This document shows positions 5,644-25,207 of a DNA stretch of 64,000 bases, in pieces. Where the stretch lies: contig OX597814.1 of NCBI GenBank assembly GCA_951406725.2, positions 95,170,001 to 95,234,000 of the forward strand, read 5' to 3'. The DNA comes from Octopus vulgaris. Lineage: Eukaryota. Numbering within the stretch: the first letter of the stretch is position 1; every line of letters starts with the position of its first letter. The position numbers and the translations under genes are program-made. The notes beneath the pieces were generated by a model that saw only the letters and a program-made list of their open reading frames with translations, was not told the origin of the DNA and did not search any database.

Positions 5644-5942
5644 CATCATCATTTAGCGTCCGTTTTCCATGCTAGCATGGGTTGGACGGTTTAACTGGGG
5701 TCTGTGAAGCCGGAAGGCTTCATCAGGCCCAGTCAGATTTGGCAGTGTTTCTACAGCTGGATGCCCTTCCTAACGCCAACCACTCCGTGAGTGTAGCGGG
5801 TGCTTTTTACGTGCCAGACAGAGCTGGCAAACGGCCACGAACGGATGGTGTTTTTTTGTGCCACCGGCATGGGGGCCAGGCGAGGCTGGCAACGGACACA
5901 AACGGATGGTGCTTTTACGTGCTACCGGCATGGGGGCCAGGC
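5642..5942 (-). mobile_element. RTE LINE 3' end (tail plus about 3 array units), inverted relative to 23884-25207
   Basis: Reverse complement of the tail and GGTGCTTTTACGTG array units at 24284-25207. Starts at (CAT)n. Confidence 0.88.
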
Positions 5943-5943
5943 G

Positions 5944-9154: not shown

Positions 9155-11826
9155 CACTAGGCAACCAAATTTTTGCTACTATTAGATGAAATGGTGCTAA
9201 TAGGTAATTTGGGAGTGTTGATTCCGAATCTGCAATCATGTTTTTGCACTATCATTATTATACTGCTTTCAAAATTACAATAATGTGAAAATTCATGACA
9301 AATAAAATGAATGTTATGTTAAGTGTAAATTACCATTATTTGGTATAAGAACAATAGAAACTAGGTGGGCAAGTAACTCTGAAACCAATAAAACACAAAA
9401 CAAAAGTGTAAAGTGAATATTATTAATTTTACGTTTTTCAAAAATAGCTTTGGCATCTTCTTTCATGCTTATGTTGCATGTCTGTTTCTCGTTTTAAAAA
9501 CCAGCAGTAGTCTGTCAGCATGTTTGGCATAAGTGGCTTTCTAGCTCTTTGATTTCTTGATGAAATCATTTACCAAGCTCATCACTTACATCACCCATAT
9601 TGGGTGGGAAAAAAATCAAGATGAGAATGGAGAAATTGAATTTTTAGAGACATTCTTACCCCAAGTTGCTTATAAGCTTTCAAAAAAATCATTCACAATT
9701 ACAACGTAGTTAGATGATTTTTCATTTCCCCCAAAAATTTTTACAAGAGAAACAAACTTTTCCCAAGCAGTTTTCTCTACTTGGCTTAATTTTTCTAGAA
9801 AAAGATCATCACGAATTAGTGTGTGAATTTCTGGTCCATTAAAAACACCAGCTTTGATCTTAGCTTCACTCTTGCTAGAAACAAATTTTTCATTGAGATA
9901 ATAATAATATATAATAATAATAATGAAATTATTGTATACGGTGCTCAATTTGAATCCTTCACCGTCTTCATTCATGGCCTTAACAAAATTCTTAAACAAA
10001 CCAAGTTTAATGTGTAAGGGAAGAAGGTAAATTTTCTAAGGGTCAACTAAAAGGATATATTTAATGTTGCATTTCTCTGGAGTGAAATCACTTCTCTTTA
10101 GCCACTCTTTCTCGTCACAGTGATGCTTGTCATCTCTGCTGCTCCAAAGGCACAAAAAGCACTGATGCTTTGTATACCCCATTTGCAACCCAAGAAGCAA
10201 ACTTTCAAGTCCCTGCATATATTCCACTTGTGTTCAGAATATTTAATCAAGTGCAAAATTTAATCCATTGATTCATAAGTTTCCTTTAATCCTACAGCAT
10301 GTGCTAGTGGTGTTGAAGGTTTTTGCCATTATGCAGCAAAACAGCTTTTAGACTTGCTTTGCTGGAATTTAGAAAGAGTCTACATTCTTCAGGATTATGA
10401 CCATACCCCATCTCATGTAGGAGTCTTTCAACATCACAGCAAAAACAAATACCGTCCTTCTCCATAAAAAATTCATACAATTCTGTATGCTGTTTTCAAA
10501 AATAGGAGCATTTTACACCATCATGATACCATTGTTTGAACCTGGAGCCCAGTAGTTCTGACTTTTCTTTCTTTAAACCCATGTCTTTAAATAATTTAAC
10601 TCAAGTTCACTTAATAAATGAGGAACTTTTTTTGAAGATCCTGGTTCATCACAATGATCTGCTGTACCACTTGGTATGCCTTCAATTGGAGTAGATGCAG
10701 TGCTTTCTTCACTTAAACTTTGTCAAAAGATGAAGGAGGTTCTGGAATTGGAATATTTTCAGCAGCATAAACAACTGCTTTTAAAACTGAAGGGCAATCT
10801 GGATAATCAATCTTGTATTTGTTCTTCTTAGAATAACCAGTGATGTTGGTTAAGCAGAAATAACAACCGGTATACTGGTTTGTTGGTTCACGCCATATCA
10901 TTGGTACTGCAAATGGCATACTTTTCCGTTTACCATTCAGTCATTGGGTTAGTGCTATGTAGCAGTTTTTGCAACAAATATAAGGTGCCCATAGTCTATC
11001 TTGGTCCCCAATTTTGCACCTAAAGTAAAACTTGTAAGCATTTCAAAATTTCTTTGTATGCTTATTTCTCTGATTTTTTTAATGTAAATTTTCCACACAA
11101 GTAACAAAAGCTGTCTGGGTGATTAACACAAACTTTTCTGCTCATCATAAATACATACAGTAATAACCTAAATCAACACTAAAGGAAGCCTATCAGCAAA
11201 CTAAAATATAAAATTTATCAACAATAAATGTTACTATAAAACATCAAAATATATTTCTCAACAAAAAAATCATTGAAATTATCATAGAATGCACTGAGGC
11301 TATGGTTATCATGAAACAATTTTTTCCATCTCAAAATTTCAAACATTGATCACTTTAATAAATAATTAAACTTACTACTAAACTACTTTTCATATAACCT
11401 GGCTCTCTTATTTAATGTACTTTGTTTTAACAGCACTAGCAGTTATCAAGAAAAGGGAGTCTGGGTGGCTTACTATAACCTAATATCAATAGTCTAATGT
11501 GAGGAGAACTTTACTATAATTACAGCGATAATAAAGTAAAATAAATTCTCATCTTGTGAGGCAATTTAACAGGTAGCCTACATTTCCCTCTATCAGCACT
11601 TATTTTTGTTTCGGTGATGAGTATATGAATGAAAATCGAAAGCAAATAGCCGACTACTTTGTCACTATTATCAATTGGTTGGAAAATCTGATGCTGTGAA
11701 TAACTAAAAAATTACACATGCTGTCTGAAAACTGATGTCATATTCGAATTCAGCACCCTAAAATTACCCTAAATCATCTGAAAAAGTTTATATAGCATGA
11801 CAAAAATATTTTTTTGTTGCCCAGTG
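9155..11826 (-). mobile_element. Full-length decayed DNA transposon, Chapaev3-type (CMC group)
   Basis: TIRs CACTAGGCAAC(9155) / GTTGCCCAGTG(11826). Subterminal inverted match TAGGTAATTTGGGAGTGTTGATTCCGAATC vs TATTCGAATTCAGCACCCTAAAATTACCCTA. CAC...GTG ends, flanks CAA / TAA (degenerate 3-bp TWA TSD). Family assignment is from recalled motifs and end structure. Confidence 0.8.
9437..11148 (-). pseudogene. Disrupted transposase of the Chapaev3-type element
   Basis: Fragments across frameshifts and stops: MMSRKVCVNHPDSFCYLCG, GDQDRLWAPYICCKNC, MPFAVPMIWREP..CYFC, LLGLQMGYTKHQCFLCLWSSR, LPLHIKLGLFKNFVKAM, SEAKIKAGVFNGPEI, GDVSDELG.FHQEI, MLTDYCWFLKRE. Confidence 0.88.
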
Positions 11827-16685: not shown

Positions 16686-16905
16686 CCCTTTTGTTACCGT
16701 ATTTATTTTGAGATGCTCTGTGTTTCTTTCAATTACTTTAAATATAACAAACAATTTAGTAAAATAACTTCGTTATCATTCAGCTAGTGTTAGGAACATA
16801 AATTGTGACTAAGGTTTGGTGGAAGATTTTAATTCAAAACTTGTGAAAACAAGACATTTGTACTCAAAGCAAGAGCCGGTTTCAGCCAGGTTGGTAATGA
16901 AAGGG
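16686..16905. mobile_element. piggyBac-like MITE, family 2
   Basis: TTAA|CCCTTTTGTTACC ... GGTAATGAAAGGG|TTAA, 220 bp. Inverted copies at 47308-47527 and 47834-48053. Confidence 0.88.
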
Positions 16906-17089
16906 TTAAACAACAACAGCTACAATAATAAAACTGTTACATGCAATGTCATTACCAGTTCGAATATGCCAGTGGCAAATTCAAACTTATAAGCAGGCCA
17001 TTTACTGTGTTTTGTCATGGAGAAAATTTCTCGCTGTAGACAAATGGTATAAATACACCAAAAACAGCTCGCAGCACCACCTATCCAGA

Positions 17090-17137
17090 CTGTGAGATGC
17101 AAGCATTTCAGAGTGGTTATCTCCTTTCCAGTCACAG
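17090..17137 (-). ncRNA. Type I hammerhead motif, intact stems, mutated core
   Basis: CTGTGA-CTGGAAA-GGAG(ATAACCA)CTCT-GAA-ATGC(TT)GCAT-C|TCACAG. Stem I is a perfect 6 bp, the site is AUC, and the core differs from CUGANGA at two positions. Confidence 0.72.
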
Positions 17138-17425
17138 AAACTAGAATGTGGTGCTACGAGCCGATAAGTGAAATAATCTCTCTAATACTATTCGAGTCAT
17201 CACACGTCAGCTGGTAACGCTGACTGGTGGCTCACCATAAATAAATTACAAGGTGGGAATGCTAAGCAGTGGTATGTATAAGTGCAATGTTATTACCAGT
17301 TCGAATATGCCAGTAGCACATTTTGAACTCTTAAACTTAAAGCCATTCACTGTGTTTTGTCATAGAGAAAATTTTTTGCTGTAGACAAATAATGTAAATA
17401 CAGCTCACAGTGCCACCTATCCAGA

Positions 17426-17471
17426 CTGAGATGCAAGCATTTCAACATGGTTATCTCCTCTTCAGTCACAG
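17426..17471 (-). ncRNA. Type I hammerhead motif, intact core, weakened stems
   Basis: CTGTGA-CTGAAGA-GGAG(ATAACCA)TGTT-GAA-ATGC(TT)GCAT-C|TCAG. There is a 2-nt deletion in the stem I 3' strand, and stem II is mostly G-U. Confidence 0.72.
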
Positions 17472-17851
17472 AACTGGTTATAACTTTGCATTTATAGACA
17501 TCACTGCTTAGTGCTCCCACCCCGTAAAACTGTTACAATATATATAAATGGCAGGCATGGCTGTGTGGTTAGGAAGCTTGCTTCCCAGCTACTTGGTTTC
17601 ATGTAACACCATGAAATTAGAGTTAAGAGTGCCTTGGTTGGTGTGATATGATGCTGGTGGCACCTTTGGCAAGTGTCTTCTGCTATAGCCCCGGACCGAC
17701 CAAAGCTTTGTAATTGAATTTGGTAGGCGGAAGTTATTGCCGTGTGTGTACATGCGTGTGTAAGTGCTTGTGTCTCCTAACAGAGTAGGAAATAAACTGG
17801 TCAATATAGTTATTCAATAACATTTTACAACATAGAATACAGTAAACTCAC

Positions 17852-18077
17852 CAAAATTTGAAGAACCAATTAAAGTCAGACTTGGCAGCTGGTCTTTTGA
17901 AATGTAATACCAAAGCCCTTTCACATGAAATGTCCATTTATTGCGATAGTATTCATATAACTGAATGCGTTTTTGTTGCTCAAATGCACAGAGTTTTTGA
18001 TGAAACTGCCGAGCAACTTGGATATAAAGATATGGAATGGCACCAGCTGCCCCACTGGCACCATAAAAGCCATTCAC
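17852..18077 (-). CDS. PGS1: PGS1 internal coding exon (226 nt) with the second PLD-type HxK motif
   Basis: VNGFYGASGAAGAIPYLY...YYRNKWTFHVKGLWYYISKDQLPSLTLIGSSNFG matches PGS1 NGF.GA.G.AGAIP / WTFH.KGLW / TLIGS.NFG. Acceptor CTCTTTACAG, donor GTGAGT. Confidence 0.96.
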
Positions 18078-19184
18078 CTGTAAAGAGAAGAAGAAATAAT
18101 TTCAAAGTGGCTATTTGAATATAATTTCTAGAGACATAGAGATGAAATAATAATCAGTGTAGAGGGTGGAAGAAGTGATAAAATTGGGGCCAGAGATAGA
18201 GTAGGATTGAAGAAAACTTTAGGAACATCTAACAACAAAAATTTTTCTCTTTTTTTCTTTTTTACAAGCTGGAGAGTATTAGAACCAGCTGAAAAGATAT
18301 CACCAATCTAAGATAAGTAGGAGGTTGGCTACTGCAAATATGATGACCAATCTATTGAAAAAAATGATGATGGTGATGATGACAAAAGCATGAATGGTGT
18401 GATAGAGATGATGTGTGAATCCAATTTGATTAGACTACCATCAAAGAGACATTTACTAACTACTATTATCTTCAATAGCAACCCAGCTTTCCTGTTTCCC
18501 CAACAACACAGATGGATTATTGCAAGTGCCAGCGGGAGAAGCTGGTCTCTATGTCACATGGTCAATTTTCAAACTGGCAAGACTGGACTTCTCAAAGTTT
18601 CAAGATGAGTCATACCAGAAACAAAATCTATTTACATTACTGTGTATGGAAATTGTCTCCAAAATACAGTTATTCTGTATTTTGGAGACAGTTCTCATAG
18701 CCAATAAACCTGCAACGTTTCTTTTTAGAGTTCAGTAGCTTACACTTTAGCTGTGCTAGAATGTAAATAGTTCGGAAGGTCAGAAGGCTAAGTTGATCAT
18801 AAACTGGACTACTTGGTCATAATATTGTGTTTCTGATTTGGGGGGTAAAAACAAACACAACATAATGTTACATTTTTGGTTTTGTTTTTAACCCAGTCTT
18901 CAATCTATGTGTCAATAATAAGTGACAGATCTCATGAGAATGTTATTTGCAACAGAGGTAGTTTTTATGCAGATTCAAAAATGATTTATCTCACGTCCAC
19001 TTAACACCATGAAATTGAAGCTAAGAATGACTTGGTTGGTGTGATGTGATGCTGGCAAATGAAGATATATTTCATTGGCTGTGTGAATAGTAACCAAACT
19101 GACTTGTGAACATTTCAGTAAATATTTATTGCAAGTCATAAAGATATCTGGCATTGGCTGTTTACAGTGAACAACATAGATATT

Positions 19185-23835: not shown

Positions 23836-23883
23836 GTGTAGTTCACTTCTCGTCCTCAACACACACATACACACAAATCAAAT

Positions 23884-25207
23884 ATGCAGAACAATGCTAG
23901 TATGCTCCGTTGGATGTGTAATGTCAGTGTTCATAGTCGACAGAGTGTAAGTGTAAGTACCTTGAGAGAAAAGTTGGACTTAAGAGGCATCAGATGTTGT
24001 GTGCAAGAGAGACGATTGCGCTGGTATGGTCATGTGGCGAGAATGGATGAAGATAGGTGTGTGAAAAAGTGCCACACCCTGGCAGTTGAGGGGACCTGTG
24101 GAAGAGGTAGACCCAGGAAAACCTGGGTCGAGGTGGTGAAGCACGACCTTCGAACTCTAGGTCTCACCAAAGAAATGACCAGAGACCGAGACCTATGGAA
24201 GTATGCTGTGCGTCAGAAGACACGGCAAGACCAGTGAGAACAATCAAAATCAAATCATATATCAGAAAGCAGGGGTTAAGTGACCCACCCGTTCGTGTCC
24301 GCTGCCAGCCTCGTCTGGCACCCGTGTCGGTGATACGTAAAAGCACCATTCACTCGTGGCCGTTTGCCAGCTCTGTCTGGCCCCCCGTGTCGGTGGCACG
24401 TAAAAGCACCATCCGTTCGTGTTCGTTGCCATCCGTTCGTGTTCGTTGCCAGCCTCGCCTGGCCCCGTGCCGGTGACATGTAAAAGCACCGTCCGTTTGT
24501 GGCCGTTTGCCAGCTCTGTCTGGCCCCGTGTCGGTGGCACGTAAAAGCACCATCCGTTCGTGTCTGTTGCCAGCCGTGGCTGGCCCCCGTGCCGGTGACA
24601 CGTAAAAGCACCGTCCGTTCATGGCCGTTTGCCAGCTCTGTCTGGCAACCGTGTCGGTGGCACATAAAGGCACCATCCGTTCGCGTCCGTTGCCAGCCTC
24701 GGCTGGCCCCCGTGCCGGTGACACGTAAAAGCACCGTCCGTTCATGGCCGTTTGCCAGCTCTGCCTGGCCCCGTGTCGGTGACACATAAAAGCACCATCC
24801 GTTCGTGTTCATTGCCAGCCTCGGCTGGCCCCCGTGCCGGTGACACGTAAAAGCACCGTCCGTTCGTGGCCGTTTGCCAGCTCTGTCTGGCCCCGTGTCG
24901 GTGGCACGTAAAAGCACCATCCGTTCGTGTCCATTGCCAGCATCGCCTGACCCCGTGCCGGTGACACGTAAAAGCACCATCCGTTTGTGGCCGTTCGCCA
25001 GCTCTGTCTGGCACCTGTGCAGGTGGCACGTAAAAAACACCCACTACACTCGCGGAGTGGTTGGCGTTAGGAAGGGCATCCAGCCGTAGAAACACTGTCA
25101 GATCTGACTGGGCCTGACGAAGCCTTCCAGCTTCACAGACCCCAGTTGACCCGTCCAACCCATGCTAGCATGGAAAGCGGACGCTAAATGATGATGATGA
25201 TGATGAA
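23884..25207 (+). mobile_element. 5'-truncated RTE-clade LINE (ORF2 C-terminus, 3' UTR array, (GAT)n tail)
   Basis: ORF 23884-24237 MLRWMCNV...VQERRLRWYGHVARM...GRGRPRKTW..VV..DL...RDRDLWK is the canonical RTE C-terminus. It is followed by a 60-bp array, the shared tail GGAAGGGCATCCAGC...CCCATGCTAGCATGG and (ATG)n. Confidence 0.9.
24284..25042 (+). repeat. About 61-bp tandem array, 12 units, alternating A/B (about 122-bp higher-order unit)
   Basis: Anchor GTAAAAGCACC (or a variant) recurs near 24338, 24400, 24480, 24541, 24602, 24664, 24725, 24786, 24847, 24908, 24968 and 25030. Units alternate GCCAGCTCTGTCTGGC and GCCAGCCTCG.CTGGC. Confidence 0.95.

Follow-up and report, generated by a model that had tools for sequence, protein, structure and literature searches.

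An intron of the octopus PGS1 gene contains a 586-nt insertion that is probably a decayed non-autonomous element of the Penelope-like element (PLE) or retrozyme type. The ends of this element are PLE-like and the helix sizes of its hammerhead motif are retrozyme-like; it works like a non-autonomous PLE or retrozyme, and not like an autonomous PLE or an active retrozyme. It is likely one old, inactive member of a repeat common in octopus, most other copies of which have an intact ribozyme core. Throughout, the window is the whole 64-kb stretch of DNA analysed.

Anatomy of the insertion and its host gene

PGS1 lies on the minus strand, the same strand as the hammerhead motifs. With the upstream exon as query, the best match was a CDP-diacylglycerol--glycerol-3-phosphate 3-phosphatidyltransferase (96% identical), and tblastn placed the exons on the minus strand at about 58097-57903, at 27711-27331 and 18078-17852, and from 2878 onward. 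The element sits in an intron of about 15 kb (17851 to about 2879), after the donor at 17852. Its parts, with the neighbouring exon, are as follows:

17852..18078, minus strand: upstream PGS1 exon (tblastn and splice contexts)
17525..17537, minus strand: left copy of the 13-nt flanking direct repeat, 13/13 identical to 16929-16941, its last 3 nt overlapping the inverted arm
17471..17527, plus strand: inverted pseudo-LTR end, truncated at its 5' side, with tail; 57 nt, agreeing with the reverse complement of 17246-17302 at 46 of 57 positions
17283..17473, minus strand: pseudo-LTR-like repeat copy 1, 191 nt, beginning at the hammerhead (alignment to copy 2)
17246..17282, minus strand: 37-nt tail, found after copy 1 and in the inverted arm, missing after copy 2
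17164..17245, minus strand: low-copy middle segment with local hairpins (depth and folds; no coding match in the one frame searched)
16942..17139, minus strand: pseudo-LTR-like repeat copy 2, 198 nt, without tail (alignment to copy 1; family pieces ending at 16938-16946)
16929..16941, minus strand: right copy of the 13-nt flanking direct repeat (13/13 identity to the left copy)

The 13-nt direct repeat sits precisely at both ends of the insertion, occurs only twice in the window (chance about 2e-5 for 21x21 placements) and, judged by its sequence, is likely a target-site duplication (TSD). No empty site was found among the joints listed (15 of 359, from contigs). The inverted arm consists of a copy of the last 20 nt of the repeat and 37 further nt, and its 57-nt duplex with 17246-17302 is predicted at -65 kcal/mol. 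In PGS1 pre-mRNA these arms would give a 57-bp intronic duplex, in a cephalopod a plausible ADAR substrate. A separate hairpin at 18637-18707 (33-nt arms, 82% complementary) scored 41 bits with the mir-450 model, below the gathering score of 60, and may be a MITE remnant or an intronic hairpin.

A tandem repeat with a period of about 340 nt had been proposed in the preliminary description. The period stands, at 334-341 nt, and the two full monomers do not: the direct repeats (17473-17283 against 17139-16942) are 191-198 nt long and together make about 1.6 units. They are 81% identical; of the 24 differences over 187 aligned nt, 20 are transitions (K2P 0.145). The repeat escaped Tandem Repeats Finder, and no further copies of the unit were found in the 64-kb window. 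Unlike in PLEs, there is no ORF between the repeats, which are separated by 143 nt with stops in all three sense frames. No reverse transcriptase (RT) or GIY-YIG ORF linked to the repeat was found among the 7 window ORFs tested against Pfam, and when one read-through frame covering tail and middle was searched as protein, 0 of 8 candidates scored. A possible ATG/GT donor at about 17238, combined with an acceptor before helix I, was set aside because 17142-17143 vary among copies.

Several other features of the window were recorded. Very high-copy repeats, SINE-like by guess, lie on both sides of the element (17551-17724 and 16780-16909). A GC-rich minisatellite of 61 nt has about 10 copies at 24285-25035 and a shorter copy at 5823-5943. 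ORF fragments at 23842-24234 (plus strand) and at 9673-10035 and 10716-10940 (minus strand) gave no Pfam match; by their motifs they resemble an RTE-type C-terminus and a DNA transposase.

Two hammerhead motifs at the locus

The following ribozyme features were located:

17426..17471, minus strand: hammerhead copy 1, intact core CUGAAGA...GAAA...AUC, broken helix II, site 17430/17429
17090..17137, minus strand: hammerhead copy 2, all helices paired, core changed at A6 and G8, site 17096/17095
17141..17163, minus strand: upstream strand of the helix I extension in copy 2, paired to 17065-17088 (21 pairs, probabilities 0.92-1.0)

The two type I hammerheads described earlier proved real. A strict scan of 64 kb on both strands, allowing at most two core mismatches and requiring helices of at least 6, at least 4 and at least 3 pairs, gave one match (17131, copy 2), against none in 30 Markov-simulated 64-kb windows. 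The cores occupy 17465-17459 and 17131-17125 and, as originally stated, the predicted AUC sites are 334 nt apart on the PGS1 sense strand, the first of them 422 nt after the 17852 donor. A scan with hammerhead models had been recommended as a check; with the Rfam models it was negative, with no hammerhead match at E<=10 for either motif in two scans. Helix III, at first drawn with a 2-nt loop, is better read as A15.1-U16.1 plus 2 bp (A-U, U-A, G-C) under a CUUG tetraloop, a loop described as thermodynamically stable in the title of PMC10401711.

In copy 1, helix II reads G.U, G.U, AxG, G.U; helix I has lost 2 nt from its 3' arm and keeps three core-adjacent pairs. Helices I (6 bp), II (4 bp) and III of copy 2 are all paired, the first pair of helix II being G10.1.U instead of G-C, and the core reads CUGGAAA (A6G, G8A). 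A further 5 + 16 pairs extend helix I of copy 2 to 27 bp in total, with small internal loops (3x1, 2x3); this region has a z of -5.2, and 0 of 300 shuffles were as stable. Neither copy in the window combines a full CUGANGA/GAAA/NUH core with three helices in one motif, and both are predicted to be inactivated by their mutations. The A6G and G8A substitutions should abolish hammerhead cleavage. A G8C substitution abolishes cleavage by the Anolis PLE hammerhead (PMC11167929). An 'active' retrozyme has been defined by a complete hammerhead in at least two consecutive units (10.64898/2026.07.22.740005); here both motifs are damaged. Divergence between the copies was 5/46 plus a 2-nt gap inside the motif and 19/139 in the remainder of the repeat; as the motif diverged like the remainder, there is no sign of constraint at the PGS1 locus.

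Copies of the repeat in other contigs

The stretch or part of it was contained in 20 of the 24 listed runs, which carry five organism labels. The family was surveyed in the contigs of four runs (three organism labels) aligned at 80% likeness. Summed contig depth over the copy 2 motif, which is not a copy number, was 11,500, 24,732, 274 and 35,245 in the four runs; copy 1 bins had a depth of 535-1,158 in run X1. About 70-105 separate contigs per DNA run carry alternative letters over the 191-198-nt repeat, which is therefore high-copy. The expectation that other copies would retain the core was borne out in 4 of 4 runs by the majority letters at 17128, 17126 and 17110, with A6 in 84-96% of the depth, G8 in 85-89% and C11.1 in 55-62% (unphased letters; figures from the 40 of 110 rows listed). 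These letters restore CUGAAGA together with G10.1-C11.1, so the motif is intact in the family and decayed at the PGS1 locus. As read from the unphased majority letters, the family motif is a CUGAAGA core with helix II GGAG/CUCC, a three-helix hammerhead of the CUGANGA/GAAA/NUH type. Another letter occurs in other copies at 7 of the 21 distal pairs of helix I: three change from G.U to Watson-Crick, one is changed on both sides, two become G.U, and the seventh breaks unless its partner changes too. These unphased letters, which are not a covariation test, suggest that the upstream arm of helix I is native and structured in the family.

Among the 26 pieces listed over copy 2, 13 end at 16938-16946, which confirms the right boundary beside the duplication. 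On the other side, 13 stop at 17113-17125, near the mutated core, and 11 at 17140-17145, where their 36-937 extra letters do not continue the alignment; only 2 pass 17150, reaching 17155 and 17168. Organism B shares the insertion, with one piece covering 17098-17374 (5 differences) and another covering 17346-17578 (3 differences) and spanning the left junction. Contig depth is elevated over the tail region (17244-17301) and reaches its minimum in the middle bin 17186-17214, where it was 71, 276, 2.9 and 60 in the four runs. In the three DNA runs alone, the middle has a depth of 60-276 against 11,500-35,000 over the hammerhead. The middle of the 334-nt unit is thus about 90-580 times rarer, in contig depth, than the hammerhead bin. 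This deficit is probably real and its size uncertain, because divergence alone can lower depth about tenfold, as in the copy 1 bins of run X1. The repeat end is so much commoner than the middle that the family does not typically consist of uniform tandem monomers.

The scarcity of the middle bears on two accounts of the unit, both of which fall under the explanation of a PLE-type insertion. The element may be a one-off internal deletion of a full-length autonomous PLE, with tail plus 5' end joined to the 3' end. Microhomology-deleted derivatives with inverted pseudo-LTRs (pLTRs) and a TSD are known (PMC3846280), and the depth minimum at 17186-17214 agrees with such an event. That same bin, however, is covered in runs X1 and X3 by more than the contig of the locus itself, with about one contig's depth in X11, and the single frame that was searched yielded no coding remnant; a one-off deletion is a possible origin, if not a probable one. 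The second account, which does not conflict with mobilisation by PLE enzymes, takes the 334-341-nt unit for a genuine subfamily of non-LTR retrozymes that has tandem, intact, self-cleaving and circularising copies elsewhere, the PGS1 locus being a dead 1.6-mer. Unit length, a GC content of 39% and canonical helix sizes fit the retrozymes of PMC7229834. The upstream arm would be native ribozyme context, with six of the seven variable distal pairs still paired; in three DNA runs a few further contigs extend over the middle; one contig of a run guessed to be RNA covers the upstream arm; and the circular fold has a z of -2.2, with 2 of 100 shuffles as stable. The subfamily reading is nevertheless rather doubtful in view of the depth deficit of the middle and of the pieces stopping at 17140-17145. 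None of the runs listed with the sequence is on record as RNA, which says nothing on expression; one contig of run X8, whose run type is RNA by guess, is identical to 17230-17389 at depth 4. A 334-nt circle junction was absent from the joints listed (15 of 359), but contigs cannot show circles, and a religated monomer resembles the tandem.

A pattern scan of metagenomes yielded 88 loci, none of them homologous to the element (two weak blastn matches, both E=0.052). Eleven of these loci belong to an unrelated repeat of about 290 nt from one assembly (L028:830-1120, L030:2268-2553, L008:640-927, L076:427-714, L012, L031, L036, L041, L050, L072 and L084); in the four tested against the element, similarity was confined to the pattern (z -1.5 to 0.8). 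This repeat has a hammerhead-like core; helix II measures 6-7 bp in 8 of the 11 loci, an adjacent helix I was not found, and 4 of the 11 carry a tRNA-Thr(AGT) gene some 100 nt downstream. Some loci show a head-to-head inversion at the core end, L072 has a partial tandem, and the repeat is possibly a tRNA-bearing PLE-type SINE.

Strand-swap model of cleavage

It had further been suggested that the defects of the two copies are complementary, and that a double hammerhead, in which the core of copy 1 cuts the AUC of copy 2 by strand swap, severs the PGS1 intron. The division into one copy with the sound core and one with the sound stems stands; full complementarity does not, as the helix II defect of copy 1 persists in the swap. 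In the swapped structure 6 of 6 pairs form in helix I and 4 of 4 in helix III, but helix II is left unrepaired because it travels with the copy 1 core. Its energy is +8.1 kcal/mol, or +2.7 kcal/mol in a possible bulged register, whereas helix II of copy 2 has -1.2 kcal/mol. Compared with the ensemble, the swap costs 5.4-11.0 kcal/mol in a trimmed RNA (17473-17085), the lower figure applying to RNA without the inverted arm and distal helix. For the whole element the figure is 16.8-22.5 kcal/mol when the inverted regions are kept unpaired, and 49 kcal/mol if the inverted duplex must melt. The copy 2 hammerhead fold itself, with its mutated core, costs 3.3 kcal/mol in the whole element. The swap must also displace the 27-bp helix I of copy 2, which holds the site, and copy 1 lies inside the 57-nt inverted duplex, which is the first to form. 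Of nine predicted Xenopus dimers, eight did not cleave in vitro (10.64898/2026.07.22.740005).

The presumption that the motif must act as a dimer is itself doubtful, since type I hammerheads of invertebrates need no dimer for cleavage when helix III is stable (PMC7229834, PMC7761336). The energies are nearest-neighbour values, which take no account of Mg2+, proteins, tertiary contacts or the geometry of pseudoknots, and the ribozyme of the Anolis PLE depends on protein, so some weak cleavage activity is conceivable. The strand-swap model is nonetheless highly improbable, and cleavage of the PGS1 intron by the element is very unlikely.

Comparison with known elements

The kinship with retrozymes and Penelope pseudo-LTRs proposed in the preliminary description holds, and the inverted arm, the tail and the flanking duplication, which it had missed, match the PLE layout. 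This is the layout of Pen2a/Pen2_Av of Adineta vaga (PMC3846280), Pen2a_Av having two direct pLTRs of about 200 bp, an adjacent inverted pLTR, a 31-bp tail and a 9-bp TSD, and the general one in Fig. 2 of 10.1101/2021.04.23.441226. PLE tails measure 30-40 bp (10.1101/2021.04.23.441226, PMC3846280), a range that includes the one-sided 37-nt tail found here, and the tail corresponds to the distance between two internal RT start sites, the targets being AT-rich (PMC11167929, PAc of Anolis). The element shares with PLEs direct pLTRs of about 200 nt, a truncated inverted pLTR on the 5' flank, a tail at one end only, a likely TSD of about 10 nt, an AT-rich target, one hammerhead per pLTR and mostly dispersed copies. 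PLE hammerheads are widespread and mostly dispersed, being present among molluscs in Lottia and Crassostrea (PMC4209133); Octopus was not found in the two supplement files of that paper that were searched. Unlike the minimal hammerheads of PLEs described there, the present motif has a 6-bp helix I with a long extension, a 4-bp helix II without a bulged base and a real helix III. With canonical helices and no bulged base before helix II, it fits retrozymes better.

Non-LTR retrozymes are tandem repeats of 150-450 bp with a GC content below 45-50% and include a mussel family (PMC7229834). The element resembles those of metazoans (coral, mussel, axolotl) in its 334-nt period, GC content of 39%, canonical type I hammerhead, likely TSD longer than 4 nt and non-coding nature, and differs from them in having 1.6 units only, neither motif intact, inverted and tailed ends of the PLE type, and a middle rarer than the repeat end. 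Conserved intronic hammerheads have been named in amniotes (PMC7761336). The PGS1 motif is, like these, intronic and on the sense strand and, unlike them, shows no sign of constraint, its decay having kept pace with the background. Cephalopod hammerheads were not described in the literature searched, two cephalopod repeat papers included; the supplement of PMC7229834 and one file of PMC4209133 may list them.

Proposed origin and significance

The insertion was likely pasted into the PGS1 intron by the enzymes of a Penelope-like retrotransposon. Its source would have been a short non-coding RNA of 334-341-nt period, with a type I hammerhead of canonical size and a long helix I, bound in trans by a PLE reverse transcriptase/GIY-YIG protein. 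Reverse transcription from two start points 37 nt apart would leave one end with a tail and one without, and integration at an AT-rich site would give the inverted arm with its tail, the partial tandem and the duplication. Neutral decay of both repeats, about 7% each, would have followed. If the repeats were identical when inserted (about 0.07 substitutions each), the insertion may be roughly 20 My old on the octopus calibration, in which a JC distance of 0.065 corresponds to 18 My and 0.09 to 25 My (PMC13282606). In the pre-mRNA, copy 1 would lie within a long hairpin closed by the inverted arm, and copy 2, its core dead, would pair with itself; the intron would therefore stay uncut.

The locus itself is most likely a dead repeat that leaves PGS1 unaffected. 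The family is a modest lead, as a retrozyme-like unit and ribozyme with the full set of PLE insertion marks in a mollusc. It is conceivable, if unlikely, that octopods possess a retrozyme subfamily whose unit measures 334-341 nt, whose hammerhead (27-bp helix I, CUUG-capped helix III) can act as a monomer, and which still has intact copies that yield circles; the inverted arm, tail and duplication would then be footprints of Penelope enzymes mobilising the retrozyme. A PLE origin of retrozymes has been argued, mainly on vertebrates (10.64898/2026.07.22.740005). If the octopod subfamily exists as proposed, the marks at the PGS1 locus would directly record the mobilisation of a retrozyme by PLE enzymes; until now homology and co-occurrence have been the arguments for that link.
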